Shown here in pieces: positions 14,382 to 63,947 of a DNA stretch of 64,000 nt. The position numbers and the translations under genes are program-made. This stretch comes from Promethearchaeota archaeon. GTDB taxonomy: Archaea > Asgardarchaeota > Lokiarchaeia > Sigyniarchaeales > SOKP01. Location of the stretch: assembly GCA_048939015.1 (NCBI GenBank), contig JBHLPW010000013.1, positions 20,607-84,606 of the forward strand, written 5' to 3'. Under the pieces are notes generated by a model, which did not search any database, had not been told where the DNA came from, and worked only from the letters and a program-made list of their open reading frames with translations. The stretch's first letter is position 1; every line of letters begins with the position of its first letter.

Positions 14382-14401
14382 TCACCAAAAATTAAGGTAA
14401 A

Positions 14402-14989
14402 ATGGTATTACGTGATAAGTTTGAATTTGATGATTTAATAGGGCATTATACTTTCCTTTATGGTGAAACTAATACTAAAAAGACATTTTATACTGCAAAA
14501 TTCGTTCAATATCTCATAGAATCAAGAAATTTTGACCCAAAAGAAATCAGTATTTTGGATTTCGCTCCACCACATAGTATTATTGGCGGGGTTAAAATTG
14601 GAGGTAAAATCAAAGATTTTTACCAAGAGATTGATAACTGTAATAATTTGTATTTTGAAGGAGAGATTCTTCCACCTCGTCTTAATGCAAGAAATATCAA
14701 AGAACTTTACGAAAATGCATGTAAAAATTTTGAAAAAGCATTTAAAATATTAAATTTATTTAACAATAAACCTACTTCAATTTTAATTATCAATGATATA
14801 TCAATTTATTTTCATATAGGAAATAAAAAACTACTATTAGACTCAATAAATAAAACCAATACTTTTTTTGGAAATTCATATTATGGCTCTTCTATAAAAA
14901 GTGATTTTGACACTCTATTTAGTTTAAGAGAAAAGAGATTAGTAGAATATTTGGTAAAAAAGATAGAAAATTCTTATTTCACTGGGTAA
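14402..14989 (+). CDS. Hypothetical protein with degenerate P-loop
   Basis: LYGETNTKKT Walker-A-like; ILDFAP, INDISIY. Confidence 0.55.
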   Translation: MVLRDKFEFDDLIGHYTFLYGETNTKKTFYTAKFVQYLIESRNFDPKEISILDFAPPHSIIGGVKIGGKIKDFYQEIDNCNNLYFEGEILPPRLNARNIKELYENACKNFEKAFKILNLFNNKPTSILIINDISIYFHIGNKKLLLDSINKTNTFFGNSYYGSSIKSDFDTLFSLREKRLVEYLVKKIENSYFTG

Positions 14990-15077
14990 ATTTTGCTAAA
15001 ACATACTAAGACAAAATAAATTTAATTAATGTCCAATTAATTTATCTACAAAATATATATAAAATTAATTGGGTAAG

Positions 15078-15722
15078 ATGAAAAAATTAATATTATTTGG
15101 GCCACCTGGAGCAGGAAAAGGCACTTTTTCAGGCCAAATAAAAAAGGTCGCTCCGGAAATTGTTCATATAAGCACAGGAGATATTTTTAGAGAAAATTTA
15201 AAAAATGAAACACCTCTAGGAATGAAAGCCAAAGCTTATATGGATAAAGGTGAATTAGTACCTGATGATGTTACTATTGATATGGTTAAGGATAGGTTGA
15301 ATAGAGAGGATGTGAAGAAAAATGGTTTTATTCTTGATGGATTTCCTCGTACTCTAACTCAAGCTGAAGCATTAACAGATATAACTGATATAGATTTACT
15401 TCTTTTATTAAAGGTTTCTCGGGATATAATATTTAAAAGAATATTAGGAAGGTATAGCTGTAAAAATTGCGGAGAAATATATAATAAATACACTCTTCCA
15501 CCAAAAGTGGAAGGTAAGTGTGATAAATGTGGTGCTGAAATTAAGTTTGAACAAAGAAGTGATGATAATGAAGAAACCTTGAAAAATAGGTTAGATGCTT
15601 ATGAGAAAAATGCCAAGCCACTTATCAAGTATTATAAGAAAGGAGGAAAGCTGAAAAAGGTTGATGCCACAGATACTTTGAGTTTCACTGAAGAAGATAT
15701 AAAGAAAATTATAGAAATATAA
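15078..15722 (+). CDS. adk: Adenylate kinase, bacterial/long type with Zn lid
   Basis: GPPGAGKGT, HISTGDIFR, GELVPD, LDGFPRT, CKNC/CDKC lid, QRSDD. Confidence 0.95.
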   Translation: MKKLILFGPPGAGKGTFSGQIKKVAPEIVHISTGDIFRENLKNETPLGMKAKAYMDKGELVPDDVTIDMVKDRLNREDVKKNGFILDGFPRTLTQAEALTDITDIDLLLLLKVSRDIIFKRILGRYSCKNCGEIYNKYTLPPKVEGKCDKCGAEIKFEQRSDDNEETLKNRLDAYEKNAKPLIKYYKKGGKLKKVDATDTLSFTEEDIKKIIEI

Positions 15723-46677: not shown

Positions 46678-47667
46678 TTAAATATGTTCTAGTTGCCTTA
46701 TTTTTAGAATAAATCTATCATAATTAATATGTATTTTTGAAAAAATCCTCCTTATAAACATATTTTGTATGGTTTTTATAATAAATTTGATAAAAAAGCC
46801 AAAGTATTTCTCTTCCTGTGATAATATCGTTTTCCATGCACTCATTCTATATCGTGCTAGATGACTAAATAGAAAAGATAAACAATAAAATGTAAATAGA
46901 TCCAAATCTTCAAATCTCCACATTTTCTTTGTCATTTCAGAAGATTTGAAAAATTCTTTATATTCATCTATAAATCTATTTTGGATTTCCCTTGAAATAC
47001 CAATGCTAGTTCTTATGAAAAAGCATTGAAGCAGGTCAATCAATGAAATTTCTTTATGTTTAATGAAAAAATATTCAGTTGGAAAATCTAATAACAAAAA
47101 AAATCTAGGAGCCAAACCATATTTTCCAAATTTTAATCTTGAGTTTAATAAGTCCTCTAAATTAAATTCAGAGGTAATATCATAGAAACTAAATGGGTTA
47201 ATTCCATGAATTCTTACTTTTCTTCTACTTAAACTACTTAAATTTGAATTTTCTTCAGTAAAATTCAGATGAAGATTTAAGTAGAAAGTGGATAAATGTT
47301 CAATACCATAAAAAAGCAATACGGGCTTATTCAATTCAATTACTTTATCTATACTATTAATATAGTCATAACCAGATCTTCCAATATCAGCAATAAATCT
47401 ACTCACTCTTTCTAATTGAGAATTATCCCGATATCTAAGACATTCTGGATTAAAACTAGATGAAAGTAGTTTATAATAATTCTTAATTTCTCTTTTATAA
47501 CATGGAAAATAATATGTTCTCTTCCGATTTTGAATGATTAAAAGTTTTTGAAGATAATGTTGAATACTATAGGGTTCGAGATATAGCTTATAATCATCTG
47601 TACTTAGTTTTTTATATTTATCACTCTCAAATGAATCTCCATATCCTGCTTGCCATCTTCCTATCAT
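46678..47667 (-). CDS. YaaC-like protein
   Basis: KPVLLFYG, HGI, SHLARY...W motifs. Confidence 0.65.
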   Translation of the reverse strand: MIGRWQAGYGDSFESDKYKKLSTDDYKLYLEPYSIQHYLQKLLIIQNRKRTYYFPCYKREIKNYYKLLSSSFNPECLRYRDNSQLERVSRFIADIGRSGYDYINSIDKVIELNKPVLLFYGIEHLSTFYLNLHLNFTEENSNLSSLSRRKVRIHGINPFSFYDITSEFNLEDLLNSRLKFGKYGLAPRFFLLLDFPTEYFFIKHKEISLIDLLQCFFIRTSIGISREIQNRFIDEYKEFFKSSEMTKKMWRFEDLDLFTFYCLSFLFSHLARYRMSAWKTILSQEEKYFGFFIKFIIKTIQNMFIRRIFSKIHINYDRFILKIRQLEHI

Positions 47668-47707
47668 AGTTTAATTTTGATTCTGTTTAATTGAAATTTG
47701 ATTTTTA

Positions 47708-48139
47708 TCAAACCATATTATTTTTAAAAACCTCAATATGGTATTTATTAATGTCTATTAGCTGAATAGTCGCTCCAAATTCATAATAATAGGGATCAAT
47801 AAACCAATTTTCTTCTATTTTATCTCTATCACTTCTGGTGTTTCTTTGGCGTTTTACTTCGATAACAAGAAAATTATTTTTATGAGTTCCTCTTGTATGG
47901 AGTACTATATCTGGTCTTTTATCTCCAGCAGAACTTTTAATTAATTCTATATCATGTTGATAATCAGGAAATTCCTTTTGTATTTCAAAGGCTAAATGAT
48001 GAGCAAGATTCCACTCAGTTATCCTTGTTTCTGGAGTATAATCGAATATATCTGGTTGGTTTTGGAAAAGGTTTTTAACTGCATTTTCTAATTTTTCTTT
48101 TATTTGTGATTTATTCATTATTTTATTTTGGTGATTCAT
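47708..48139 (-). CDS. PD-(D/E)XK nuclease-fold protein
   Basis: E..LAHHLA, DIE, RPDIVLHTRG..NFLVIEVK. Confidence 0.7.
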   Translation of the reverse strand: MNHQNKIMNKSQIKEKLENAVKNLFQNQPDIFDYTPETRITEWNLAHHLAFEIQKEFPDYQHDIELIKSSAGDKRPDIVLHTRGTHKNNFLVIEVKRQRNTRSDRDKIEENWFIDPYYYEFGATIQLIDINKYHIEVFKNNMV

Positions 48140-48174
48140 ACATTTTCAGTAAAAAATAAGTTTTTTATTTTAAA

Positions 48175-48750
48175 TCAATTTTCTAAGTTTAATCTATCCA
48201 GTAGATTTAAATCAGGTCTGTAAATATTTACATGTCCACATTTTAAACATTGCAACACATTAGGATTTTCAGATTTAATAAATTTAAACATGTTCTTTTT
48301 ATTACAGTTTCCACATATATAATCAATTGATTTATCTTGTGTTTTAATAGTAGCTCCTGAATCTGAAACTTTTCCACTTATTTCTTTTCCAGATTTCAAT
48401 TTAAGAGTTAACAATTTAGGATTAAAATATACATCACGTAGATTTCTAATAAGGAGATTCGATATAAAATCTTTTGTAATATCTGGAAAATCATCGTAAT
48501 TTAATTTCTTTCCGCATCTAGGACATGTCCAATTAGTTAAACCAATTTCTCTCTTATCAAAATTAGTCACAACATCATAGGTTATTGTTTGACGATTTGG
48601 GTTAAACAAGAATTTTTTTCCTTCCATTTTTGTTAAATCATCACATGTTGGGCAAGGAAATAATTTTTTTTTTTTAATTTTTCTGGATGGTTTGATCTTC
48701 CAACTTTTGTATCGCCTATTCCATTTAATATAACGCTCTTTCCTTCTCAT
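48175..48750 (-). CDS. Hypothetical protein with two Zn-ribbon pairs
   Basis: CPTC/CPRC and CGNC/CLKC. Confidence 0.65.
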   Translation of the reverse strand: MRRKERYIKWNRRYKSWKIKPSRKIKKKKLFPCPTCDDLTKMEGKKFLFNPNRQTITYDVVTNFDKREIGLTNWTCPRCGKKLNYDDFPDITKDFISNLLIRNLRDVYFNPKLLTLKLKSGKEISGKVSDSGATIKTQDKSIDYICGNCNKKNMFKFIKSENPNVLQCLKCGHVNIYRPDLNLLDRLNLEN

Positions 48751-48887
48751 GATTATTGGATTTCCTGGAAATTACACTTTTTTGTAATAATTTAATATTT
48801 ATTCCTATTTAAATTTCTTTTAAAAATAATTTAGAGTTAGAGTTTTGATTATTAATAATACGAATGGTAATAACCTACCCATAATCA

Positions 48888-49280
48888 TTACTTTCTTTTT
48901 CCTTTTATCTTTTTTATACTGAACTTTATTTTTCCTAGTTTTATTGTCCCTTTCTTAGATCTTGAACGGGAAGGATAATCCAATTCAATCACATATTTAG
49001 GAGAAAACTGAAAAGATCCAATGATGCCAATCGTAGAGATAAAGGTATACGGTGATGCCGTTATATTTTCCTCAGAATATGTGAAAAATTGCGTTCTTAC
49101 ACATAAAAGACATAATAAGACGAGTGAAAATGGAATAATTATACATTTCAAACTGAGAGTAAGCCATTTAAAATGACCGATAACGTTTAGTTTTATCTCT
49201 CGTAATCGAAATAAATAGGTTAAACCAGCTAAAAGAGAAAGAATAAGACTTAAAACACTACTTATTACAAAAAAGATCAT
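48888..49280 (-). CDS. Hypothetical membrane protein, possibly 5'-truncated
   Basis: Hydrophobic helices; frame open a short way upstream with no start codon. Confidence 0.45.
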   Translation of the reverse strand: MIFFVISSVLSLILSLLAGLTYLFRLREIKLNVIGHFKWLTLSLKCIIIPFSLVLLCLLCVRTQFFTYSEENITASPYTFISTIGIIGSFQFSPKYVIELDYPSRSRSKKGTIKLGKIKFSIKKIKGKRK

Positions 49281-49376
49281 CGTAAATATAAGTTTGAAAA
49301 AAGAATTATAGACTACTTCATTTTATTTTGAATTACATAACGTATCACGAAATTAGAAGTAAAAAATGTTTTAGGG

Positions 49377-50489
49377 TTAGATAAATAAGTATGCAATAAT
49401 CGGTATAAAGGTTAAAAGTAATGAAAATAATGTAAGAAATTTAGGTATTTTTTGTGAAGACAATAATTGTTTTTTTTCCAGTGCTATAGCAATTTGTAAA
49501 TATACTTGCTTCTCATTTTCTTCTAGATGATTATATACAATTTTATACAAATTTTGCAGAGATTTAGACTTAAGTGTTTTATTTCCTGTATAGTTTCGTA
49601 TAAAGGTTAGAATTTCAAATATTAATAATATAACCATTGCTATAAAAACTATGATCGTAACAACATTTAATTCTCTTCTATAGATAACTGTAAATCCAAA
49701 AAGAAAAAACTGCCCAAATACTATTATTGCTTCGGAAATATTGATAGTCTCAAATGAATTGGTAAAGGGAATAGAATATTCAAGTTTAATTTTCTGGGGA
49801 TCAATTCTTAATTTTCTCATTGTATAAATACCATAATACAAAGAATAAAAACAAAAAATCAGTAACCAAAATAAAAAAATAGGAACAACTATATTAACGT
49901 CTGGTGTATATACTTCAAGAACAAGCAAAATAAAAAAAGCAATAATATTGTACCAAGTTATAGTAAACCAAGCTTTACTAATGAAATTTAGAACGATAGC
50001 AAAAATTTTCTTCCATATTGGTCTCTTTGAGTTATTTATTATATGAATTAATCCATCTAATGTGTAAATTGAGCCCTTCCTCTCATCCTTTTTATTTATG
50101 TCGAAATCTCTGAAATATGAAATCTTTTTATTGTCCTTTACTCGATATGATTCTTGATTATGCTTTGTAATAATTAGTTTATTTGTAATTATCCTTGGTG
50201 GAAATAAAACATCTTGGTCATAAGATATTTCTTTCAGGATATTTTTTAAAGAAGGAAGAGTAACCTCACTAATATCTTGTCCACTAAATTCGTACTTTAA
50301 GTCTTTAATATTAAAATTTTCAACTAGAATCTTTACAGTTCCTTCCATGCTTTCCACTAATGATTCTTTTAATAATTCCTTGTGCTTATTAAAAAAATAA
50401 AACTTAATAAATTTATACGGATAGAATTTAACTGATTTATTCAAGAAACTAAACAATTTATTTATGAAAAAGAGCTTATTAGGCTTCAT
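49377..50489 (-). CDS. Hypothetical protein with about 5 C-terminal TM helices
   Basis: 370-aa ORF, soluble N-half, hydrophobic C-half. Confidence 0.65.
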   Translation of the reverse strand: MKPNKLFFINKLFSFLNKSVKFYPYKFIKFYFFNKHKELLKESLVESMEGTVKILVENFNIKDLKYEFSGQDISEVTLPSLKNILKEISYDQDVLFPPRIITNKLIITKHNQESYRVKDNKKISYFRDFDINKKDERKGSIYTLDGLIHIINNSKRPIWKKIFAIVLNFISKAWFTITWYNIIAFFILLVLEVYTPDVNIVVPIFLFWLLIFCFYSLYYGIYTMRKLRIDPQKIKLEYSIPFTNSFETINISEAIIVFGQFFLFGFTVIYRRELNVVTIIVFIAMVILLIFEILTFIRNYTGNKTLKSKSLQNLYKIVYNHLEENEKQVYLQIAIALEKKQLLSSQKIPKFLTLFSLLLTFIPIIAYLFI

Positions 50490-50622: not shown

Positions 50623-51402
50623 ATGCGAAAAATTGTATCATTCTCAGGAAAAGGCGGAGTAGGAAAATCCACACTTCTTGTTCTTATGCTCAAGTATCTC
50701 CTCGAAAAATTTAAAGATCTCAACATCCTCGTAATTGATGCTGATCCCGATGCTAATATCGGAGACATCATTGGAAAAGAAATTCATTTCAAAGAAACCA
50801 TTGGAGGAAAAATGGCTGAATTTAAACATAAAATCCAAAAAAGACTAATACCTCTAGATGTCTCAAAGGATCAAATCGTCGAATCTGAGGTATTTGATGC
50901 ACTTATTGAAATGGATGATTTTGATATTTTGGAAATGGGACGCGGAGAGGGAAGCGGGTGTTACTGTAGCATCAATAACTATTTGAAACGCATTATTGAT
51001 GTATTAGCAAGAAATTATGATATAGTGCTTATCGACGCTCCTGCAGGGCTGGAGTTTTTTTCCCGAAAAACAGGACAAAATGTCACGGATTTAGTTATCG
51101 TGAGTGATCCTTCTAAAATGGGCATTCACACCATGAAACGCATATTAGAAGTAACCAAGGAGGTCGATTTAAAATTTGAAAATGTCTGGATCCTTGGTAA
51201 CAGGTTTCCAGAAAATTCTTTAAGAGAGATTTTTGAAAAAGAAGTCGTAGGTATCGGAAAAGAATATGTGAAGCTCCTCGGGTTCATCTCAAATGATGAT
51301 GAGATTAGTAAAATGAACATAGTAGGAGAAAACTTATTGTTGTTGCCTAATGAGAGTGTAGCATATAAAACTGGAAAGGAATTATTTGCTAAAATAGTTT
51401 AA
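50623..51402 (+). CDS. cooC: CooC/AcsF-type nickel-insertion ATPase
   Basis: SGKGGVGKST, IDADPD, MGRGEGSGCYC, DAPAGLE..SR. Confidence 0.92.
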   Translation: MRKIVSFSGKGGVGKSTLLVLMLKYLLEKFKDLNILVIDADPDANIGDIIGKEIHFKETIGGKMAEFKHKIQKRLIPLDVSKDQIVESEVFDALIEMDDFDILEMGRGEGSGCYCSINNYLKRIIDVLARNYDIVLIDAPAGLEFFSRKTGQNVTDLVIVSDPSKMGIHTMKRILEVTKEVDLKFENVWILGNRFPENSLREIFEKEVVGIGKEYVKLLGFISNDDEISKMNIVGENLLLLPNESVAYKTGKELFAKIV

Positions 51403-51442
51403 TCTTACAAAAACTATATATATTGTTCTCGAAATGTATAAA

Positions 51443-54400
51443 TTATTCCTTATATAGAATCTCCTCGTCAAAAAGCGGTAGGTCACAGTTAGGGTGTACT
51501 TTGATTATGTAATAATCAGGATCTGGGATTTTCAAATATTCAGTAATCGAGTTTTTAATATCTTCTTTTCTATAAAGCTTTATTTTCTTTGTATCAATAA
51601 AATATAATTCAAAATCAGGTGGAAGTTTTTTCACGTCTGGGAGATCAATCCATACATGTGTCAAATGCTTCATTTGAAGTAAAAATCGAGGAAATTCGCA
51701 AGAATTTGCTACTTTAAACAGAAGTCGATATTCATTTTCAGGAGAATCAAAGGGAGCCCATATATAATCTAATGATTTTGAAGTTATTATAAGTTGTTTA
51801 AATCGAGATAAATTTGATATAAAATCAGGTAGTTTATTTAATCCAGGAAGATTAATCTGAAAATGAGTTAAATTTTTTAATTGATTATCTATTTCTGGTA
51901 TTTTACAATTTATTTTAACTCTTAATTGAAATAATCCCTTATTTTCGGCAATAAAAGTATCTTGAATTGCTTGGGGGAGCCCTTCATTAGTGATTATCAA
52001 TTTTTTAATATTAGGAGATTCCAACATCCATTCACTTAGATTGACGGTTTGAAGATGTTCAAATCTAAAATGAGTGAGATTTGAAAAATCCGCTTTTATT
52101 TTAGGAATATCAGATCCTGGATGTTCGTAAACAAAAATATAATTGCCTGTTTCAGAGAGTCTCCATAAATGTTCATTTTTAAAATGACTCCTTCCTATCC
52201 TTCCAAGTGGACAAATTATTAATTTTTTTATTATCCCTTTAATTTCAAAGTTTTTTGATAGAAATTGATAATTAGAAATAAACAAATTCATAATATTCTC
52301 TTCAATAGTCAGATCTGATATCTTATAATAACGATCATACGTCAATAGGACTTGTGGTTCTTGTGATTTTTCATTTTCGATAATGTTATTAAATTCTAAT
52401 TCCTTAGAATGTGCATTTATTATCACATGTGAATAAATTTTTAGTTCCAACAAAGAGAGAGGGAGATTCTTTATCTTAGGTGAATCAATTATTAATTTTT
52501 TTATATTAGTAAGAAATGTAAGGCGTTTGGGAAATTTAATATTATTAAAGCCTTCTATATGAAGAAATTCTAACTCTTTAAGTTGAGAAATCGTATCATG
52601 GATATCTAAGGGTATAATAGATTCAAATTTATTTGGCACACTAATTTTTAATTTTTTAATTGATTTATTTAATCCAAATTGTAAAGCCCTATTAACCAAT
52701 TCTAAGGACCCTAATCGCTCTAATGACCAAAATAATGGCTTTAAAGAGGAAGATGGATTTGTTATTTTTAATGAATTTATTCTGAAGTCATCAAATTCAA
52801 AGTTATAAGTTATTTCTTTATGAATTTTTTTTTCTTCATTTAAATAATTAATGACCACTGCATCTTTGATGTATAAATATTCTAATTGACTTATTTCTTT
52901 TTCTTTGAAATATTTTGGAGTTATAGCGTCTTTAAAATTTAATCCATCATCAATAAAATTAATCGAAATAGGATTTTGATCTTGTACTTTATTACTAATA
53001 GTATTATTATAAAAACAAACATACTCTAAATTTTTGAAATCATGCCACCATGAGTCTAAATTTTCTATATTATTTCCTTCTAGGTTTAGAAATCTTAATG
53101 ATTCTAGACCTAATAGAGAGTTAGGCAACTTCTTTAATTGATTGTTGCTTAAATCTAGGATTTGCAGATTTTTTAGATTACCGATAGATTTATGGATTCT
53201 TACTAGCTTATTTAATTTAAGATCTAATTTTTCTAATCCAAGTAATTTAAAAATACTATTCGGGAAATAAGGTAATTGAGATTTCCGAAGTCTTAATTCT
53301 ATAACTCTGCCTTTTTCGTTACAAATAAAACCTTTTAAGCTTTTCTGTTCTTTTAAGTCAGTAATATTTTGTAATTTAATAGTTTGCCCTAATTCCTTTA
53401 ATTCTATCTCCAGTATTTCTAACCAATATTTATCAGCTTTACATATGTCAGTGCCATGGAAATTAGCAATTAAATTAGAAATATACACTTCTATAAATTT
53501 TTGATATTCATCTTGAAATATGAATTCTTCTTGAAAGTTCTTTCTCCTCTTTTTGATAATACCACTGGAAAAAATAACGTTCCAACCATACTGATTTTCT
53601 TTAATAAAGTCTTTTAAATCATCTTCTGGAATTGGATCATAAGGATCAGCAATAATACATGTTAATTCTTGAAATATTTTTTCTATGTTATCAAAGATAC
53701 CCATTCTACTTAAAATAGTGTCCTCATTATTTGGGTCAGCAAATAATCTAAACCACTCAGGATCTTCTGGATCGAAGATATAATCCTCAAGATTAGTTGC
53801 ATTTCTAAAAAATAAATTAATGATAAATGGCTTCTTTAACAGCTTTTTTAATCTTGAATCTTGTATTTCTGAATAATTAATTCCATATCTTTCATTAATA
53901 TCTAATAATCTTTCTTCATCCACGAGATCAGATAAAATATAACTGGCTCCTGTAAATATTCGAATGTCATCAAAATATGTATACCTATCATTGTTGTATA
54001 TAAACTGTTTGTAATGTCTAAAATTGTATGAGATTTCTTCGGTATTAATCCAATCTACTAAACGTGAGGTTAATAATACCATTAAATGCTCTGGGTTGTT
54101 TTTAATACATTCTGTAAGGTCATTTAAAAACTTTTTTCGTTCATCTGGTAGTAGTTCATCAAATCCATCAAATACAAGTAATATTTTTTTGTTTTGGCTA
54201 TCAAAATTTTGTACTATCTTTTCAATTTGAGGAGACCTAAATCCTCCAAATAAATTCAAAAAATCGGACTCATAAGAACTACCTAAATGAAAATAGAAAG
54301 TTGGGAATATTTTTACATATCTGAAAGCCAAGAAGCAAACATTCCAGGTTTTTCCTAAACCCATATGTCCCAATAATAAAAAAATTCGGCTATTAGTTTT

Positions 54401-55783
54401 CGGATCCTCTATGCTGTTATAGAAATCTTCAAACTCTAAACTCAGTTTTGGATCTTCAATAAAAAAAGATTCATCATACCTATATCCATATTTAGATGAT
54501 AAATCTGCGTTATTCAAGTGATTTCTACAATATTCCAGAATATTCTTATTATCAGAATCGAAAATCTCATCATAATTTTTATTCTTATACTCTCTAAGGA
54601 CTTTATTGAAATTTTCTTTGAGAATTTCTAATATAGTTACGTTTTCGAGTTGTAATTTCTCGATTTCCTCAATTTTCACATCTTTAAATAATGGATTCTT
54701 CAATAAATAGTGAGAACTGTAAGTTAGTATTGTACGTTTGAAATCTTCAGAGTTAAATTCGAGTTCTTTAATTATATTATCTAAAATATATATAATCTTT
54801 CGAAAAATATCTTCTAACTTAATAAGAAAGAGAATTCCTCCATCCTCAATTCCTTCAATAACTTTTTTTATCAATAATTTCTGTTGAATCATGTCAAAAT
54901 TCGAAACGCAGTTTCTTGTTATTTTATCTGATATAGAAATAACAAGAGATTGTTCCAGTAAGTAACATAGATTCTGTGAAATTAGTTCTCTATCATCAAG
55001 ATCCATGGATATTATTAGATTAATTAGATTCTGCACTAAAGGCTGTATCTCTGGATTAAATCTTAGCAAGAAATCATACCAAAAATTAATTTCAAGAAGG
55101 GTATCTATATTGATATTAGAAGCTTCTACCTGATTACTAATTGTATAATCGTCTCTTCTTGCTGAAAACCTTATTTTTAAACTTTTCTCTTCAGAACTAG
55201 TATTTGCTAATATATTTTCTCTCTTTTCAAAAAATTTTAAATATTCTGTAATTCCGTTCTTAAATGAATTGTATATATTATCTCCATTACAAAATACATT
55301 GTAAAAACCTTTCGTAAAACCAATTGCACCCTCATCATTTACTTTCTTTTTAACTCCAATTGAAATGTCAATGATATTTTTTAGTTTTTCAGCTAAATCT
55401 CCCGTGTAACAGGTATTAAAAATGACTAACTTAATGAAATTACTGTATTTATTGATTGTTGAGATAAGATCGAATTCAAGAATATTCGAATTTGTATCTA
55501 AATCATCTCCAGGAAAAACAGCACCTATTTTCTCAACACCATGTCCAACAAAGTGAAGCACTTGAGGACGATATTTTAAAATTCTACTTTTTAATTGATT
55601 TCTCTTGATTGAAAGTGCAGGGATGATTTGAATATAATCTTTATAATTACTTTCCTCGATTAAATCGTAAATTAACTGAAATTCTTCGTTAGATTTCAAT
55701 ATATCCATGTCTTTAATATCTAATCCTAAAAATAGAATTGTAATCTTTTTTCTTTTGGTAGTAAACATTTTCTCTTGAATCAA
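51443..55783 (-). CDS. NLR-like protein: CHAT (caspase-like) protease - STAND/NACHT-like NTPase - leucine-rich repeats
   Basis: LHFVGHG and FNTCYT catalytic dyad; Walker A GHMGLGKT, Walker B LLVFDGFDE, LLTSR; LRRs (IGNLKNLQILDLSNNQLKKLP). Confidence 0.85.
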   Translation of the reverse strand: MIQEKMFTTKRKKITILFLGLDIKDMDILKSNEEFQLIYDLIEESNYKDYIQIIPALSIKRNQLKSRILKYRPQVLHFVGHGVEKIGAVFPGDDLDTNSNILEFDLISTINKYSNFIKLVIFNTCYTGDLAEKLKNIIDISIGVKKKVNDEGAIGFTKGFYNVFCNGDNIYNSFKNGITEYLKFFEKRENILANTSSEEKSLKIRFSARRDDYTISNQVEASNINIDTLLEINFWYDFLLRFNPEIQPLVQNLINLIISMDLDDRELISQNLCYLLEQSLVISISDKITRNCVSNFDMIQQKLLIKKVIEGIEDGGILFLIKLEDIFRKIIYILDNIIKELEFNSEDFKRTILTYSSHYLLKNPLFKDVKIEEIEKLQLENVTILEILKENFNKVLREYKNKNYDEIFDSDNKNILEYCRNHLNNADLSSKYGYRYDESFFIEDPKLSLEFEDFYNSIEDPKTNSRIFLLLGHMGLGKTWNVCFLAFRYVKIFPTFYFHLGSSYESDFLNLFGGFRSPQIEKIVQNFDSQNKKILLVFDGFDELLPDERKKFLNDLTECIKNNPEHLMVLLTSRLVDWINTEEISYNFRHYKQFIYNNDRYTYFDDIRIFTGASYILSDLVDEERLLDINERYGINYSEIQDSRLKKLLKKPFIINLFFRNATNLEDYIFDPEDPEWFRLFADPNNEDTILSRMGIFDNIEKIFQELTCIIADPYDPIPEDDLKDFIKENQYGWNVIFSSGIIKKRRKNFQEEFIFQDEYQKFIEVYISNLIANFHGTDICKADKYWLEILEIELKELGQTIKLQNITDLKEQKSLKGFICNEKGRVIELRLRKSQLPYFPNSIFKLLGLEKLDLKLNKLVRIHKSIGNLKNLQILDLSNNQLKKLPNSLLGLESLRFLNLEGNNIENLDSWWHDFKNLEYVCFYNNTISNKVQDQNPISINFIDDGLNFKDAITPKYFKEKEISQLEYLYIKDAVVINYLNEEKKIHKEITYNFEFDDFRINSLKITNPSSSLKPLFWSLERLGSLELVNRALQFGLNKSIKKLKISVPNKFESIIPLDIHDTISQLKELEFLHIEGFNNIKFPKRLTFLTNIKKLIIDSPKIKNLPLSLLELKIYSHVIINAHSKELEFNNIIENEKSQEPQVLLTYDRYYKISDLTIEENIMNLFISNYQFLSKNFEIKGIIKKLIICPLGRIGRSHFKNEHLWRLSETGNYIFVYEHPGSDIPKIKADFSNLTHFRFEHLQTVNLSEWMLESPNIKKLIITNEGLPQAIQDTFIAENKGLFQLRVKINCKIPEIDNQLKNLTHFQINLPGLNKLPDFISNLSRFKQLIITSKSLDYIWAPFDSPENEYRLLFKVANSCEFPRFLLQMKHLTHVWIDLPDVKKLPPDFELYFIDTKKIKLYRKEDIKNSITEYLKIPDPDYYIIKVHPNCDLPLFDEEILYKE

Positions 55784-55871
55784 TAAAACTAATTGAACCT
55801 TATTATGTTAATATAAATTAACAAATTTTAACATTATTGTCTTTTCAAGTAAATATTGAGATTTAGGGAAA

Positions 55872-57218
55872 TTAAAAAAAAACTTTTAATCTAGAATTAG
55901 GTTCATTAAATTTCTTCCAGTCGTATTTTTGTTTAACATCCAATTCTTTCCCTGTTAATTTCTGAAATTCAGCTATAATATAATCCTGAAACTCTTCATA
56001 GTTTAATGTGTGCGGGACGGTAATTAGGACAACATTGTATTGTTTGCACAATTCCATCTTGACTTTGTCCCGTTCTTGTTGTTTAACAAAATCCTTGTAT
56101 TTCCTATGGTACTTAGGATATAAAACATAATGTTGCGGTCCGTTAAACTCGAATGCTAACCTCAATTTTTCATTATATCCGTCAAGATGCATCTGTCCCC
56201 CACTAAATGGGTTCACTAACCATTCAGGACGTTCTTTAGGAAAGCTTGCTTTAAAAATACGTTCAAAAAAGCCTCGACACACTTGCTCTCCTTCCCCCTC
56301 TGTACAAGTAGGACACCACTGAGGACGTCGAACGTGAGTTATATCCATCTCAAAAGTATTCTCACATTTTCCGCACTTCCACTTGAATTTATAATGGCTG
56401 GGATCATGAGCTTTAAGATATTCCTCTTTACTTGATAAAAATTCTCCCTCATACCCAGTTTTAATAATCCCGATTCTTTTTGCCAATTCTAAGATTTTAT
56501 TATATGGAGTGCGGAATTTACGGGAAAGAAGGGAATATTGACAATTTCTGCACCATGATCCTGATTTTATATTTCTGGCTGTTGCCTCCCAGATATTACC
56601 ACATTTTCCACATTTCCAATGATATTTGCTCATATCGGGATGTTTGGATGTTTCATAGTCCTTCTTACTCGTTAATAATTTTCCCTCAACACCAGTTTTT
56701 TCTAAACCCCGTGTTTTAGCAAGTTCAAGCATCTGTTTATATGTCCATGTCTCCCGTCCTTGACAACGAAGGCACCATTGCTTCCGATAGAGAACTGCAT
56801 TCGGCGAGGTATTCCATATCTTTCCACACTTTCCGCATTGCCATTTAGAAGAGACATTCAATCCTTTAAACTCTTCTGAAATAAATTTCCCAGCTACTCC
56901 TGTTTTTTCCATCCCTACAATTTCAGCTAATTTCTCCATGGAGTGTTTGTCATAAGTATTTCTGCATTTAATCTCTTTCACCTGAAGTGAAGCATTAACT
57001 TCCTCAGCTAATTTTTTGAATTTCTGGAAACTTTTTTCGGGAATAGAAGAACCCTTATTTAGAACATTTCCAATAAAAAATTCAATCTCTTTACTGATAG
57101 TTTCTTGGGATAATCCTTTCTCAGTTTTCAATAATAATACAATACGACGAACCTTCTCAGGCTTTAATAGATACCGCTTCGTTATGACTCGTATATCATC
57201 CAAACTTTCACTAACCAT
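55872..57218 (-). CDS. Zn-ribbon repeat protein with C-terminal Vsr / PD-(D/E)XK-like endonuclease domain
   Basis: Three W.CGKC...WC..C repeats; E..CR..FERIF, LDGYN...AFEFNGPQHY, D..K. Confidence 0.8.
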   Translation of the reverse strand: MVSESLDDIRVITKRYLLKPEKVRRIVLLLKTEKGLSQETISKEIEFFIGNVLNKGSSIPEKSFQKFKKLAEEVNASLQVKEIKCRNTYDKHSMEKLAEIVGMEKTGVAGKFISEEFKGLNVSSKWQCGKCGKIWNTSPNAVLYRKQWCLRCQGRETWTYKQMLELAKTRGLEKTGVEGKLLTSKKDYETSKHPDMSKYHWKCGKCGNIWEATARNIKSGSWCRNCQYSLLSRKFRTPYNKILELAKRIGIIKTGYEGEFLSSKEEYLKAHDPSHYKFKWKCGKCENTFEMDITHVRRPQWCPTCTEGEGEQVCRGFFERIFKASFPKERPEWLVNPFSGGQMHLDGYNEKLRLAFEFNGPQHYVLYPKYHRKYKDFVKQQERDKVKMELCKQYNVVLITVPHTLNYEEFQDYIIAEFQKLTGKELDVKQKYDWKKFNEPNSRLKVFF

Positions 57219-58066: not shown

Positions 58067-58504
58067 TTGGAGGGTGTTTTAAAATTGGAACCAAATGAAG
58101 AAAGTAAAAAAGAATTAAATAGTTTAATGGAAAAAATTGAAAAAAAAAGATCTCCAAAAGATAGAATTGAAGCGCAGCTAGATCTGATTGCTGGTTTTGA
58201 TGAGCCTAGTGCTAAATTGTTAACCCTAAAGGAATTATTATTAGAGGAAAAAGAAAAGGAACTTGCTTTCCCATTGCTTAGCTTCGATAAACAAGCAGAA
58301 ATTACCATGGAAAGAATAAAAGCACAAGAAAAGTTTGAAATTTATATAGTGGATGTGGGTATTATTGATAGAGAAAGAGCATTAAAAGAAATAGAAGAAA
58401 AAAGTGAAATCGGAATGGAAATAATTGAAATCGAAAAAATAGCAGTTAAATTTGCTTTAGAAGATATTAGAAAACAAATAAGTGAGGGGAACATGCAATT
58501 ATGA
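58067..58504 (+). CDS. Hypothetical acidic/helical protein, translationally coupled to the downstream protease
   Basis: 145-aa ORF; stop overlaps next ATG (ATGA). Confidence 0.65.
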   Translation: MEGVLKLEPNEESKKELNSLMEKIEKKRSPKDRIEAQLDLIAGFDEPSAKLLTLKELLLEEKEKELAFPLLSFDKQAEITMERIKAQEKFEIYIVDVGIIDRERALKEIEEKSEIGMEIIEIEKIAVKFALEDIRKQISEGNMQL

Positions 58505-59130
58505 CAGGGACAGTATTAGCAATAGACTCAAATTATGAGACATTAACAAATGTTGCATGGAATTATCGAAAGAGTCTTATCTATCCATATATGGCTAATA
58601 AAGGATTTTCCTTTATTCACGCGGAGGGTATTTATGCCAAACGCTGGTTTGTTAGATTAAATGCTATTAAACCTGAAGTTGTATATATGACAGGTGTTGG
58701 TCACGGTTCTCCACATGAATACACAGGGCACAATGGAATGCCTGTTTTTAAACAGGGGCGATATTTAAGACAAGAAGTAGAAGATAAAGTAGTACATTTC
58801 TTATCATGCTATACTGCTCGGATTTTAGGACCTAGTTTTGTAAGGCATGGATGTAAAGCATACTTCGGATACAGTGAAGCTTTTGTTGTTTCAGATCTAA
58901 GGTATAAGGATGTCTTTTTTAGATGCGATAGTGAAATTGATATCGCATTTGCAGATGGTTTACAAGCACATCAAGTTCATGAGAGAGCAATTAGCATTTT
59001 TAGATATACTATCCAAAGTTTGCGAAACGATGGAAAATATCATACCGCAGCAGCTTTACAGCATAATCTAGACTGTTTATGTTCTCCAGAAACTTCAAGT
59101 ATATGGGGAGATCGAGAAGCAACTATTTAA
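58501..59130 (+). CDS. Clan CD (caspase / gingipain C25-like) cysteine protease domain
   Basis: YMTGVGHG and VHFLSCYTA His-Gly/Cys dyad; G..FV..G.KAYFGY. Confidence 0.7.
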   Translation: MTGTVLAIDSNYETLTNVAWNYRKSLIYPYMANKGFSFIHAEGIYAKRWFVRLNAIKPEVVYMTGVGHGSPHEYTGHNGMPVFKQGRYLRQEVEDKVVHFLSCYTARILGPSFVRHGCKAYFGYSEAFVVSDLRYKDVFFRCDSEIDIAFADGLQAHQVHERAISIFRYTIQSLRNDGKYHTAAALQHNLDCLCSPETSSIWGDREATI

Positions 59131-59225: not shown

Positions 59226-59453
59226 CTACTCTTCTTTTTCCAACTCTTTTAAATTTTCTTCAAATCTCTGATATCCATTTACTTTTTTTTTGGAAATATT
59301 GGTTTTAGAAACAAATCTTTCAGTAGTAGATTCAGTCGCAAATTTAACCTTCATAAATTTCTTTATCGCAACTCTATATTTCTCCCTTTTACTTTTTGTT
59401 ATCCGAACACTCACAAAGTCCGACTCCTCCCCAAATTTCCGCTTCCTCACCAT
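59226..59453 (-). CDS. Small ribbon-helix-helix-like DNA-binding protein (copy 1)
   Basis: RKRKFGEESDFVSVRITKSKREKYRVAIKKF; paralogue of 60712-60954. Confidence 0.65.
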   Translation of the reverse strand: MVRKRKFGEESDFVSVRITKSKREKYRVAIKKFMKVKFATESTTERFVSKTNISKKKVNGYQRFEENLKELEKEE

Positions 59454-59654
59454 GTCATCCCGTCTCTTTCTTCCGATTCCTCACCTAAACTGCTATTGCA
59501 AATATCTTACACCTCGGATTTTTAGACTTCACAATCAGTCCAAAGACCCCCAAATATTAAAAAAATTAATTGTACTGACATTCAAAACTATATGATTTTG
59601 GGTGATCCAGCAGCTTGTTTTAGAATTCCAGCAAATCAATAATGAAATACATAA

Positions 59655-60536
59655 CTACAAGAGAATATCCGATATATCTTTAATAACTCTAAAATCTTTT
59701 CCAAACACTTTATACCTATCCATTGGATCATACTGTATAAGTTCTTTAAAATTAATGCCTGTAACCTCAACAATTCTTTTGATGGGTACCTGATAAGTTT
59801 TAGCTTCTTCGGGTGAAAAAGTTTTCAGAGTGTCAATTAAATTTTTTTGACTTAATAAGTAAGCAGTCGCAGTAAATTCATTCTTTAGTTTGTCCTTTCC
59901 TATTACTATCTTCCAGAATTCATTTGGAATTTTTACAGTAGTATATATCCTGTCATTGTCATTAAAAATAGGTCCGGTGAACACAGACAACCTTGAACTT
60001 TCTATCTCAGCTTTATTTAAGATTAAATCTTCTAAATCAACCCAAGGCAATCTATTAAATTTCTCATGTTGGGGACAACAATTAGTATAGAAAAACGTAT
60101 CTTTATTCGCTAATTTTGCCTCCTCTAAAGAACCCCAAACAGGATCTAATCTTCTTACTAAATGACCTCTATCAAGGGGATTATCTTTGTAAACCTCATT
60201 ACCAATCTGGCTAGTATCCTCGATTCTTGGATCAAATCTCCATTCTTGGTTTCTTAAAATCCCATCATCACTATCTTTCAGTTTTGACCCATCTATATTA
60301 CATGCAGTGTATAATGCTAATTTTCTTTTCTTATTCATCAGTATTGAAAAGTGATGATATTTTAAGAAATATCTGTCAATAGAATCAGAAGCTTTAGAGT
60401 CGATTATTAAAGATTTTTCTATAATTCCTCTATTTATTGGTAATTCGATGGTTTTATGTAAGAATGAGTTTGAATAACCTTCTCTATCAAGTCGTAAATT
60501 TTCTGCCAAAGATTTAGAATTAGAACCATTTTTCAT
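59655..60536 (-). CDS. DNA/RNA non-specific endonuclease (NucA/EndoG family)
   Basis: YHHFS, DRGHLVRRLDPVWG, TF.YTNCCPQ..FN..W..LE, IP..FWK. Confidence 0.92.
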   Translation of the reverse strand: MKNGSNSKSLAENLRLDREGYSNSFLHKTIELPINRGIIEKSLIIDSKASDSIDRYFLKYHHFSILMNKKRKLALYTACNIDGSKLKDSDDGILRNQEWRFDPRIEDTSQIGNEVYKDNPLDRGHLVRRLDPVWGSLEEAKLANKDTFFYTNCCPQHEKFNRLPWVDLEDLILNKAEIESSRLSVFTGPIFNDNDRIYTTVKIPNEFWKIVIGKDKLKNEFTATAYLLSQKNLIDTLKTFSPEEAKTYQVPIKRIVEVTGINFKELIQYDPMDRYKVFGKDFRVIKDISDILL

Positions 60537-60711: not shown

Positions 60712-60954
60712 TTAATCTTGATTATCGCTTTTATCTTTCTTAATATGATCAACAAATTCTTCAAATTTCCAAAATCCGGTAGGTTCGATTTTGTAAAGTC
60801 TAATTATAGGATCTCTCTCATTAGATATGCATTCACTCGCAAACATCTTCTCTACAAACCTCTTTATCGCAATCCTATAGTCCTTTCTTTTGCTTTTTGG
60901 AACGCGAACGCTTACAAAATCCGACGCTTCTCCAAATTTCTGCTTTCTCCCCAA
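60712..60954 (-). CDS. Small ribbon-helix-helix-like DNA-binding protein (copy 2)
   Basis: TTG start at 60954 by alignment with copy 1: GRKQKFGEASDFVSVRVPKSKRKDYRIAIKRF. Confidence 0.65.
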   Translation of the reverse strand: MGRKQKFGEASDFVSVRVPKSKRKDYRIAIKRFVEKMFASECISNERDPIIRLYKIEPTGFWKFEEFVDHIKKDKSDNQD

Positions 60955-61013
60955 GCCATCACATCTCTTTTTGACGATTCCTATCATAAAATGCTATTAC
61001 ATATATCTTGCAA

Positions 61014-61096
61014 CTCCGATTTTTAAACTTCTCATATTATCCAAATTCCCCCAAAATAGCATATCACGAAATTCCAATACCGTATCATCAAAAGTG
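61014..61096 (+). repeat. Conserved non-coding module with TATCACGAAAT repeats (copy B)
   Basis: ttatccaaa..c.c.aaaatagc.tatcacgaaattccaatacc.tatca shared with 63357-63436; upstream part shared with about 59512-59556. Confidence 0.8.
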
Positions 61097-61263: not shown

Positions 61264-62391
61264 ATGACAGAATCATTCGAAATAAAAACGAAAGAATTTG
61301 ATAAGAATACAATCGATACAGATGTTCATGTGCTTGTTGTTTCTGATATTCATCTTGGGTCCAGGAATTGTAATTTAATTCAGCTAAAAGAGTTTTTAGA
61401 TGCAATTAAGAATAATAAATTCGGTCAGAACTTAGAGAAATTAATCATAATTGGAGATTTCTTAGATTTGATGATAAACTTTAAAAAAAATTTCACAACA
61501 CCTACAAGAAGGATAATTTTTAAAAGAACAATGATATCAAAAAGCCCACAATTAATGGCAGATTATATGAGAATAGAACGAAACCAATTTACCTATAGAG
61601 ATGTGATTTGTTATTTATGCGGAATTTTACAATCAAAAACTAATTTAAAAATAATTTTTGCATTAGGGAATCATGAAATCAAGATCTATGGAAATTCTGA
61701 TAAAAAATTTAGTACTCGAAGCGAAGAAATTGCTAACATCTTTCAAAAGAGATGCATCAATTGTACACAAAAGAAGAACATGCTGGATAATATTGAAATA
61801 ACCCAATATGTGGTTATTGATAAGAATTTGAACCCAAAATGTTACCATTCTGTTAAAGATTTTAAAAATGAAGCTTTTCCAATTCTACTCTCTCATGGAC
61901 ATCAATATGAGAGTAAATTTTTTCGGGAAATTGTTGGGAGATTTGTGTGGCGTCGAATCTTTAATATAAAAGAAGACTGGAAAAAATCTTTATATGATTA
62001 TATATGGAACGATTATTTATATCGAGAAAAAGAGAAGAGAATGATGAATCCAGATCATCCGCAACAAAATATCTTAACCGAAAAATGGGTTCGAAAAAAA
62101 TTAGCTGAACAAGGAATTAAAGGTACTAAAATTGAAAAGGATATCATATTTTATCTAAAATCAGTAAGAGAACTAAAATGGTTATTAACTCGAAAAACCG
62201 CACACAATTATCATAAGGCAATTGAAAAATTTATCAAAAAAAAGCTTAAAAGGGAAGGACTGCATGTAATATATGGACATACTCATATTAAGGAAGAAGA
62301 AGGTGAAAATTTAATTTCAAATACAGGAACATGGCAAAATTATTATTCAGAACAACATAAAAAATCAACTTATATCACAATTTCTCTATAA
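61264..62391 (+). CDS. Calcineurin-like metallophosphoesterase (LpxH-like motifs)
   Basis: SDIHLG, GDFLD, GNHE, HGH, GHTH, NTGTW. Confidence 0.88.
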   Translation: MTESFEIKTKEFDKNTIDTDVHVLVVSDIHLGSRNCNLIQLKEFLDAIKNNKFGQNLEKLIIIGDFLDLMINFKKNFTTPTRRIIFKRTMISKSPQLMADYMRIERNQFTYRDVICYLCGILQSKTNLKIIFALGNHEIKIYGNSDKKFSTRSEEIANIFQKRCINCTQKKNMLDNIEITQYVVIDKNLNPKCYHSVKDFKNEAFPILLSHGHQYESKFFREIVGRFVWRRIFNIKEDWKKSLYDYIWNDYLYREKEKRMMNPDHPQQNILTEKWVRKKLAEQGIKGTKIEKDIIFYLKSVRELKWLLTRKTAHNYHKAIEKFIKKKLKREGLHVIYGHTHIKEEEGENLISNTGTWQNYYSEQHKKSTYITISL

Positions 62392-63356: not shown

Positions 63357-63470
63357 ATCCAAATTTTTAACCTCCCAAATTATCCAAAGTCACCTAAAAT
63401 AGCGTATCACGAAATTCCAATACCATATCACGAAATCCCTTCTGTATCTTTGTAACATTATACGAAAGTG
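63357..63470 (+). repeat. Conserved non-coding module (copy C): two TATCACGAAAT repeats 21 bp apart plus ATTATACGAAAGTG; probable element end
   Basis: Repeats at 63405-63415 and 63426-63436; 14-mer at 63457-63470; 30 bp before the cooC fragment. Confidence 0.75.
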
Positions 63471-63500: not shown

Positions 63501-63947
63501 GGATGCTATTGCAGTATCAATAATTATTTGAAACGCATTATTGACATACTAGCGAAGAATTATGAAGTCGTACTTATAGATGCTCCTGCGGGATTGGAAT
63601 TTTTCTCCCGAAAAACAGATCGAAATGTGACCGATTTAGTTATTGTAAGCGACCCAAGTAAAATGGGAATCCATACCATGAAACGCATATTAGAAGTAAC
63701 CAAAGAAGTCGATTTAAAATTTGAAAATGTCTGGATCCTTGGTAATAGGTTCCCAGAAAACTCCATAAGAGATATATTAGAAAAAGAAGTAGAGCAAATT
63801 GGTAAAGAATATGTAAAGTTCCTTGGTTTTGTCGAAAATAGCGATGAAATTAGTAGAATTAATATTGTAGGAGAAAATCTTTTAGATCTATCAAATGAAA
63901 GTAAACCATATAAAACAATAAAAGATTTATTTGCTAAGATAGTTTGA
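63501..63947 (+). pseudogene. cooC: 5'-truncated duplicate of cooC (3' 447 nt)
   Basis: Colinear, same length as 50956-51402, starts exactly at GCYC; lacks the Walker A half; the track's MDEPLTKYKKK leader is non-homologous. Confidence 0.9.

Follow-up and report, generated by a model that had tools for sequence, protein, structure and literature searches.

NLR-like proteins of prokaryotes are usually reported to have TPR or WD40 repeats as their sensors. Bacterial NACHT proteins act in anti-phage defense, and LRR sensors as well as caspase effectors occur among them (bioRxiv 10.1101/2022.07.19.500537). The initial annotation of the gene described here regarded the order effector-NTPase-LRR as the layout of plants and animals. 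This is only roughly true: a bacterial NACHT-LRR protein (bNACHT16) and caspase-type NACHT effectors have been published in the same work. Fusions of CHAT and NACHT are also common, and relatives of the compact CHAT domain found here are fused to NACHT in P0070, P0114, and P0200. Among Atlas clusters, CHAT+NACHT and C14+NACHT come nearest, with scores that serve as leads only. Because publications already describe both CHAT-NACHT fusions and NACHT-LRR proteins from bacteria, the Asgard CHAT-NTPase-LRR protein is not a new class. In the publications consulted, no description was found of a single chain that combines CHAT, a NACHT-like NTPase, and an LRR region of about 600 aa.

The gene is located in a 64,000-nt stretch of DNA that was analyzed as a whole (hereafter the window; Table 1). 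The host is an Asgard archaeon of the Lokiarchaeia type and belongs to the order of Promethearchaeum syntrophicum. Its product is probably a single-chain, NLR-type (STAND) antiviral immune receptor, in which an LRR sensor would control a NACHT-like switch and oligomerization module and a CHAT protease effector. This reading draws on what was observed of the architecture, the conservation of catalytic and NTPase residues, the accessory and island status of the gene, and the defense-type neighborhoods of its homologs. With 26–27% GC around the ORF, an open frame of 1446 codons far exceeds chance. Translation probably begins at the ATG at 55768, which gives a product of 1441 aa, because the N-termini of close homologs read MFTTKRKK. 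That one gene encodes a caspase-like CHAT domain, a STAND NTPase, and a long LRR region was borne out by the intact single ORF and by profiles and structure models of the modules, and all of the motifs noticed beforehand are present (as HFVGHG, FNTC, GHMGLGKT, FDGFDE, and LTSR). The structure model that includes the N-terminal part covers 795 residues, and residues 780–1446 were modeled separately. The genome search recovered a single copy of the gene, and the profile search for paralogs found no second CHAT match in this genome. The NTPase profile gave one weak paralog match (C6:39440-40651, E = 9e-8). A search for gasdermin (PF04598) had no match in this genome, but it had none in the control genomes either and is no guide to whether the protein is present. 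No tRNA or Rfam elements were found within the window.

Table 1. Features of the CHAT-NTPase-LRR (NLR) gene and its island. Positions are those of the window; residue numbers count from the TTG of the 1446-codon ORF.
Feature	Position	Strand	Residues	Basis or remark
Whole ORF	51443..55783	-	1446 codons from TTG plus stop	Uninterrupted frame
Compact CHAT (clan CD, caspase-fold) protease domain	55184..55750	-	~12-200	Profile vs. 8TL0 and model
Catalytic His81 codon	55541-55543	-	81	Aligned to SAVED-CHAT H375
Catalytic Cys125 codon	55409-55411	-	125	Aligned to SAVED-CHAT C422
Helical linker / N-terminal helical region	54464..55183	-	201-440	Helices in model
NACHT-like STAND NTPase and following helical/winged-helix region	53384..54463	-	441-800	Motifs, Pfam, structure neighbors
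LRR solenoid	51446..53383	-	801-1446	Pfam LRR_8/LRR_14 and model
cooC/ParA-like gene, 3' half (left direct-repeat copy)	50956..51402	+		Whole gene 50623-51402; bounds island
Displaced cooC/ParA-like 3' fragment (right repeat copy)	63501..63947	+		Starts at GCYC motif; 80% identical to left copy
145-aa partner of 209-aa protease	58067-58504
Stand-alone 209-aa clan-CD protease	58501-59130			2.3 kb from NLR gene

The N-terminal domain has HFVGHG at residues 77–82, which holds His81-Gly82, and FNTC at residues 122–125, which ends in Cys125. A profile of this domain family matched SAVED-CHAT (PDB 8TL0) with E = 2.8e-33, and model residues 7–222 superpose on this structure with Z = 23.3 and an rmsd of 2.2 Å over 189 residues. 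Caspases, legumain, MALT1, gingipain, and metacaspase also superpose on the domain model (Z 12–13.6), and structure alignment thus places it in the caspase-hemoglobinase fold. H81-G82 and C125 line up with 8TL0 at its HFIGHG and NAC motifs, and these were equated with H375/C422 of the SAVED-CHAT paper through an inferred 20-residue numbering offset; mutation of H375/C422 abolishes the activity of SAVED-CHAT. The direct Pfam CHAT match of the whole protein is weak (E = 0.2), and the gathering cut-off of PF12770 (24 bits) was not reached by either the whole protein (11.5) or the domain alone (18.3). In a set of 30 diverse compact-CHAT proteins, 26 match Pfam CHAT at E ≤ 0.01 (best E = 5.7e-12), and His-Gly and Cys are nearly invariant. 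By these profile matches, the domain is a short, divergent CHAT subfamily. It is predicted to be a caspase-like cysteine protease that would act as a built-in effector.

The helical linker that follows is the fastest-evolving part of the protein, with 15–35% identity to distant homologs vs. 47–59% for the NTPase. The NTPase has a Walker A motif (GHMGLGKT, residues 472–479), a Walker B motif (FDGFDE, 538–543, within LLVFDGFDE at 535–543), and a sensor-1 motif (LTSR, 571–574, within LLTSR at 570–574). In the family alignment, GxxGxGKT, DGFDE, and LTSR are invariant, as expected of STAND/NACHT proteins. For Pfam, NPHP3_N scores 26.9–30.9 bits (cut-off 24.8), NACHT 17–21 bits (below its cut-off of 26.7), and nSTAND5 17.6–22 bits (below its cut-off of 34). 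Among the 33 members of the NTPase clade, 30 match NPHP3_N, 25 match NACHT, and 17 match nSTAND5. The first two of these counts support the earlier assignment to the STAND class, and the NTPases may be classified as a divergent, probably NACHT-like clade. The structure neighbors include Avs5 (Z 11.7), Avs4 (11.4), ZAR1 (10.6), CED-4 (10.6), and Avs3 (10.2), but BrxC (Z 12.6) and ORC/Cdc6 (Z 11.2) match as well as the STAND proteins do, such that the structure search cannot separate them. The model has low pLDDT at model residues 570–612 and 697–775. When the whole 795-residue model was searched with Foldseek, the NTPase part gave noisy Clp/AAA+ alignments, and the wider structure search was cleaner. 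The NTPase profile had only marginal matches in the PDB (FtsY, E = 0.003; NLRC4, E = 0.014–0.07), which are unhelpful for sub-classification.

The C-terminal part is a continuous LRR solenoid in the model of residues 780–1446, and all of its best structure matches are LRR proteins (Z 15–16.7). Direct Pfam matches above the cut-offs (LRR_8 and LRR_14) are limited to residues 826–930. Five to six canonical 23-residue repeats (about 827–925) are followed by an irregular insert (about 930–1010) and then about 18 degenerate repeats. The LRR region is about 600 aa in length, with the solenoid spanning residues 800–1430 approximately. As in NLR proteins, the solenoid comes directly after the NOD module on a single chain. 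LRR proteins without an assigned role are abundant in Asgard genomes in general (bioRxiv 10.64898/2026.10.28.762692), and for this reason LRRs alone are no evidence of immunity. Residues 1101–1200 approximately form a hypervariable stretch, with 47–53% identity among proteins that are >80% identical elsewhere. The homolog P0006 has 38% identity to the NLR protein in the CHAT/linker part and 71–79% in LRR residues 801–1100, and among the homologs different N-terminal modules are swapped onto a common NTPase-LRR chassis. These mosaic homologs and the partly hypervariable LRR suggest a receptor-like mode of evolution.

The CHAT-NTPase-LRR layout is common to 15 proteins, all of which retain the His + Cys dyad and the NTPase motifs. 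LRR Pfam domains are present in all 28 proteins that the NTPase profile matches strongly. The named members of the clade belong to Promethearchaeota without exception, and the clade seems to be confined to this group. In 30 loci of the more distant Asgard members, no CHAT domain was found; as judged from these comparisons, the predicted caspase-like protease is an addition in one subclade of the LRR-fused NTPase clade. In 24 genomes of the same genus, no homolog of the CHAT-NTPase-LRR gene was found.

The gene is an accessory gene in a variable island. It is convergent with a cooC/ParA-like gene (gap of 40 bp), the 3' half of which is repeated 12.5 kb away, such that the NLR gene is inside an insert of about 12 kb. 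Beyond the right copy, the conserved chromosome picks up again, in contig C74. In the congener G017, the NLR gene is precisely missing, and the stop codons of cooC and ZnF are about 20 bp apart. Other cassettes occupy the same cooC hotspot in relatives. No integrase, replication, or mobility genes were recognized by Pfam in the insert. The genes flanking the NLR gene in the window have only faint PADLOC matches, and the island is therefore described as defense-like rather than as made of recognized systems. The NLR protein itself was not matched by the PADLOC-DB 2.0 models of Avs1-5 or bNACHT; its sole match was a weak one to SAVED_CHAT (E = 0.0028), on the protease domain. The neighbors of the homologs include an OLD-TOPRIM ATPase at one locus; SIR2-TPR and LRR proteins at another; TIR-LRR, NgoFVII/PLD-helicase (restriction-like), and ParE at a third; and NYN with DUF4238 at a fourth. 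The patchy distribution, the variable region, and these neighbors are features of a defense island, and the island location claimed initially is consistent with the insert bounded by the cooC duplication, the empty site in G017, and the defense-type genes near homologs. A separate observation concerns the two-gene module of a 209-aa protease and its 145-aa partner in the island, which is also present at four other loci; at one of these, it is directly after a ParA/cooC-like gene.

In the proposed mechanism, the LRR region would keep the NTPase closed in the resting state. Binding of a ligand to the LRRs, which may be a protein from a virus or mobile element or else a host protein that infection has disturbed, would release the NTPase for NTP-dependent oligomerization and thereby gather the CHAT domains. 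Protease activation may then occur by clustering, as in the SAVED-CHAT filament or for caspase-9 on the apoptosome. The substrates would be cellular or viral proteins, and their cleavage may cause growth arrest or cell death before the invader spreads, an antiviral outcome of the abortive-infection type.

Several other explanations may be considered. The same machine may respond to a non-viral trigger, as a STAND protein for cell death, stress, or self/non-self recognition that senses endogenous damage, a syntrophic partner, or conspecific cells. Fungal NLRs have a role in allorecognition, and the architecture suits any ligand-gated protease switch. Furthermore, many Asgard LRR proteins are of unknown function, a link has been drawn between prokaryotic NLR-like proteins and life as multicellular forms or aggregates, and no viral ligand is known for the CHAT-NTPase-LRR protein. 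However, the patchy and species-specific occurrence, the exact one-gene presence/absence polymorphism, the mosaic and partly hypervariable homologs, and the defense-type genes beside them are more in keeping with an arms-race gene than with a physiological regulator, and a non-viral trigger is considered unlikely. It is more doubtful that the gene is cargo in the service of a mobile island, either to exclude competing elements or as an addiction module, lethal to cells from which the island is lost. An insert between duplicated 3' halves of a target gene is typical of integrated elements, and the use of the hotspot by other cassettes points the same way, but the lack of recognized integrase or replication genes, the gain or loss of the NLR gene by itself within the block, and the unrelated contexts around homologs argue against this role. 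Defense genes often ride on such islands, so this explanation overlaps with that of an antiviral receptor.

The suggestion that the substrate is encoded nearby found no support. No partner gene is conserved across seven homolog loci, and G017 lacks the NLR gene only, with the same flanks. A specific version is a two-protease cascade, in which the CHAT-NLR protein would cleave and activate the 209-aa protease as SAVED-CHAT does PCaspase. Such a cascade has this precedent, and the 209-aa protein is a second caspase-fold protein within the same island (Atlas model TM 0.69–0.74 to CHAT/C25 clusters; one homolog is named "gingipain domain-containing"). However, the four other loci of the two-gene module have no CHAT-NLR gene nearby, and the 209-aa protease gene is present at none of the seven homolog loci. 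Because the loci do not coincide, the NLR gene and the module appear to travel independently, and a cascade is quite improbable. Least plausible is a catalytically silent CHAT domain that serves only for adaptor functions or oligomerization, with the protein as a scaffold or regulator. Although the weak direct Pfam score and the minimal size of the domain (about 170 aa) are compatible with this explanation, the invariance of His-Gly and Cys in the 15 relatives, the near invariance in the compact-CHAT family, and the superposition on the proven SAVED-CHAT dyad argue against it.

The CHAT-NTPase-LRR protein provides a compact, single-gene model of inflammasome-like logic among the archaea most closely related to eukaryotes. 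A NACHT-like switch with LRRs is the standard form in the Asgard NTPase clade, unlike the usual prokaryotic TPR or WD40 sensors, and receptors of this type are missed by current defense-system catalogs. They offer a testable case for LRR gating of a prokaryotic STAND NTPase, for what senses Asgard viruses, and for the cleavage targets of a minimal CHAT. A far-reaching and very unlikely extension is that the LRR-fused NACHT-like clade of Promethearchaeota represents an archaeal origin or pre-invention of the eukaryotic NOD-LRR coupling, with a caspase-type effector already attached. If so, the inflammasome logic (LRR sensing, NACHT oligomer, caspase) would predate eukaryotes in the ancestral archaeal lineage, as opposed to an independent assembly in animals and plants. 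The present sequence comparisons do not establish a descent of eukaryotic NLRs from this clade.

Compared with known systems, the animal inflammasome NLRs (NLRC4 and the NLRP family) with caspase-1 share the order effector-NACHT-LRR and a ligand-gated oligomerization that leads to caspase activation. However, they recruit a separate caspase via CARD/PYD adaptors, whereas the Asgard protease is built in, and the sequence affinity is very low, as in the NLRC4 match above. Known fusions of caspase-like proteases and STAND proteins also join the protease directly to the NTPase, with no adaptor domain in its stead, but their C-termini are WD40/beta-propeller, TPR, or unassigned, in contrast to the LRR sensor. 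For the protease domain, the closest solved relative is SAVED-CHAT from the type III-B CRISPR/CBASS hybrid of Haliangium ochraceum, with an aligned dyad and a protease that is activated through oligomerization of the fused sensor. That sensor is the cyclic-oligonucleotide-binding SAVED domain instead of an NTPase with LRRs, and the dedicated substrate PCaspase adjoins it, whereas the Asgard NLR loci have no conserved neighbor. The bNACHT proteins (Kibby et al., Cell 2023; bioRxiv 10.1101/2022.07.19.500537) differ in that the Asgard protein is archaeal, has an NTPase below the Pfam NACHT cut-off, and is unmatched by PADLOC models. Nevertheless, they have the same arrangement of effector, NACHT-type NTPase, and repeat sensor in one chain, the DGxDE Walker B and TSR sensor-1 motifs of the Asgard NTPase, and both LRRs (bNACHT16) and caspase-type peptidases among their listed fusion domains.

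The CHAT-NLR gene is a single unbroken open reading frame of 1446 codons in DNA with a G+C content of about 26–27%, and it is present as one copy in the source genome. The ATG at 55768 is probably the real start, because the N-termini of close homologs read MFTTKRKK. In direct Pfam scans of the product, LRR_8 and LRR_14 exceeded their cut-offs at residues 826–930 only, NPHP3_N scored 26.9 bits (cut-off 24.8), NACHT scored 17 bits (under the cut-off), and CHAT gave a weak match (E = 0.2). The NCBIfam scan returned only LRR similarity to Xop effectors, and the sole PADLOC match was a faint SAVED_CHAT.

To characterize the CHAT protease domain, residues 6–800 were used as the query of an exhaustive phmmer search, which retrieved 8092 proteins, many of them aligning solely to residues 1–175. 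These residues make up a compact module, about 170 aa long, found in many architectures. Among 30 aligned compact modules (alignment A4), the GHG histidine is invariant, the NxC cysteine is nearly invariant, and 26 match Pfam CHAT. The compact CHAT profile matches the solved SAVED-CHAT protein 8TL0 with E = 2.8e-33. In addition, an AlphaFold model of residues 6–800 (mean pLDDT 73; mostly 76–94 in the CHAT part) aligns structurally to 8TL0 (Z = 23.3; rmsd 2.2 Å over 189 residues) and matches caspases, legumain, MALT1, gingipains, and metacaspases with Z scores of 12–13.6. By the HMM alignment, the GHG histidine of 8TL0 is residue 355 of its sequence and the NAC cysteine is residue 402; an inferred 20-residue offset of the deposited chain makes them H375 and C422. 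Their counterparts in CHAT-NLR are His81 and Cys125. Mutation of the H375/C422 dyad abolished SAVED-CHAT activity (bioRxiv 10.1101/2023.06.23.546230).

The NTPase module has the motifs GHMGLGKT (472–479), LLVFDGFDE (535–543), and LLTSR (570–574), all without variation across the family. The combination of DGxDE and TSR is reportedly a signature of the NACHT type. Among 33 members of the NTPase clade, 30 match NPHP3_N, 25 match NACHT, and 17 match nSTAND5. The structural neighbors of residues ~406–747 are BrxC (Z = 12.6), Avs5 filaments (11.7 and 10.8), Avs4 (11.4), ORC/Cdc6 (11.2), ZAR1 (10.6), CED-4 (10.6), and Avs3 (10.2); the predicted fold is therefore AAA+/STAND. It is the sequence evidence only that points to a NACHT-like assignment specifically. 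The LRR region has five to six canonical repeats, followed by an irregular insert near residues 930–1010 and about 18 degenerate repeats. In the model of residues 780–1446 (pLDDT 75.8, pTM 0.71), these form an unbroken strand-turn ladder. In both Foldseek and VIA, the best-scoring matches to this model are LRR proteins without exception (Z = 15–16.7), namely the Roco LRR, plant LRR receptor kinases, SHOC2, TLRs, and VLRs.

Full-length relatives of CHAT-NLR are rare, with about 12 found among 5.8 billion proteins (33–76% identity), one of which is a Promethearchaeum syntrophicum protein without the CHAT domain. A profile search of longer proteins yielded further relatives; LRR Pfam domains are present in all 28 strong matches, and the named ones are all from Promethearchaeota. 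CHAT, NTPase, and LRR are combined in 15 proteins, all of which keep the His, Cys, and NTPase motifs, and sister proteins have the same NTPase-LRR chassis with different unannotated N-termini. None of 24 same-genus species genomes has an NTPase homolog at E ≤ 1e-10. Homologs of the NTPase are found in 7 of 16 genomes of other families within the order and in 18 of 300 sampled other genomes of the phylum; the homologs in those 18 show identity of 30% or less throughout and lack the CHAT domain. The homolog P0006 shares 38% identity with CHAT-NLR in the CHAT/linker and 71–79% in LRR residues 801–1100. P0006 is thus a mosaic, which indicates recombination between lineages and suggests that effector halves are swapped between receptor alleles. 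Furthermore, residues 1101–1200 are only 47–53% identical, even in proteins that are 80–89% identical elsewhere. This variability and the mosaicism point to receptor-type evolution.

CHAT-NLR is an accessory gene in a variable genomic setting (see table). In the congener G017 (locus L015, contig C35, 8231–8420), only about 20 bp separate the stops of the convergent cooC-like and Zn-finger genes; compared with window 51380–55900, the site is precisely empty, lacking the CHAT-NLR gene alone. The entire cooC–Zn-finger block of G017 is inverted relative to its flanks. In G023, G006, G002, and G024, the cooC-like gene passes directly into sequence found here on another contig, C74, and the segment 51403–63500 is missing in four congeners. 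The two copies of the cooC 3' half are 12.5 kb apart, the right copy being downstream, and 63501–63945 is 80% identical to 50956–51400. From this duplication and the cooC-to-C74 continuity in congeners, sequence comparison identifies the segment as an insertion at the cooC 3' half, in which no integrase was recognized. The window ends with its contig just past the right copy, and C74 continues with a 76-bp overlap. Within the island, direct repeats and small cargo genes between them have a cassette-like layout. A second variable block lies between a HAD hydrolase gene and the cooC-like gene; at this position, G023 carries unrelated DNA of about 3.3 kb. PADLOC matches among the window neighbors are faint only (PD-Lambda-3_A, 1e-6 over 30 residues; ZorE, 0.002).

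Features in and around the island that holds the CHAT-NLR gene (window coordinates)
Feature	Coordinates	Description
Second variable block	46678–50489	YaaC-like protein; small protein with PD-Lambda-3_A/VRR-NUC-like motif; multi-Zn-ribbon protein with weak ZorE/HNH match
cooC/ParA-like gene	50623–51402	Convergent with CHAT-NLR gene
Left repeat copy	50956–51402	3' 148 codons of cooC/ParA-like gene, from GCYC motif onward
CHAT-NLR gene	51443–55783	Minus strand
Zn-finger DUF4379/CapR gene	55872–57218	Next after CHAT-NLR gene
Overlapping gene pair	58067–59130	145 aa and 209 aa; second has stand-alone clan-CD (CHAT/gingipain-like) fold
209-aa ORF	58501–59130	Motifs GVGHG and LSC
Direct repeats	59330–59554 / 60831–61055	225 nt, 75% identity
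Endonuclease_NS gene	59655–60536	Small cargo gene
Direct repeats	61015–61092 / 63358–63435	78 nt, 83% identity
Metallophosphatase gene	61264–62391	Small cargo gene
Zn-ribbon protein gene		Small cargo gene, 298 aa
Right repeat copy	63501–63947	Second cooC 3' half, starts at GCYC; 80% identical to left copy

The Atlas model of the 209-aa protein has a pTM of 0.93 and TM scores of 0.69–0.74 to CHAT/C25 clusters, and one source labels a homolog as "gingipain domain-containing". This gene and its upstream partner (139–145 aa) form a module in four other metagenomic loci, all without CHAT-NLR; the module directly follows a ParA-like gene at one of them and elsewhere adjoins a protein-kinase/helicase fusion. 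Because the two-gene module is an independent cassette, a cascade between CHAT-NLR and this protease is possible but unsupported.

Among the homolog loci examined, no neighbor gene is recurrent. The homolog P0004 (75% identical) has the same convergent position and adjoins a ParA-like gene, while neighbors at other loci include an OLD-TOPRIM ATPase, a SIR2-TPR protein with LRR proteins, and NYN and DUF4238 genes. In P. syntrophicum (CP042905.2; locus L003), the gene at 14140–15291 encodes a TIR_2-LRR protein of 383 aa and lies 0.9 kb from the gene for the NTPase-LRR homolog without CHAT; an NgoFVII/PLD-helicase-DUF3427 protein and the toxin ParE are encoded in the vicinity. This gene set is likely a defense cluster in a cultured Asgard archaeon.

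The analysis establishes the domain layout, the conservation of the key residues, the accessory nature of the gene, and its genomic surroundings. By analogy with Avs/bNACHT proteins, the SAVED-CHAT filament, and caspase activation by the apoptosome and inflammasome, CHAT-NLR may form a ligand-gated, NTP-dependent oligomer that would switch on its own caspase-like protease to act on a substrate. The outcome would probably be abortive infection or dormancy, directed against viruses or mobile elements.

LRR solenoids with unknown function are enriched in Asgard proteomes (2026 preprint, bioRxiv 10.64898/2026.10.28.762692), and Leao et al. counted NLR systems in Asgard genomes and did not describe LRR or protease forms. 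We found no published description of the NACHT-like-LRR clade restricted to Asgard archaea or of its subclade that carries CHAT. Kibby et al. (bioRxiv 10.1101/2022.07.19.500537) listed LRRs among bacterial NACHT sensors and caspase among the peptidase effectors, and tested the NACHT-LRR protein bNACHT16. Given these precedents, and since compact CHAT modules of the same type are also fused to NACHT in other proteins, the kind of system represented by CHAT-NLR is already known.
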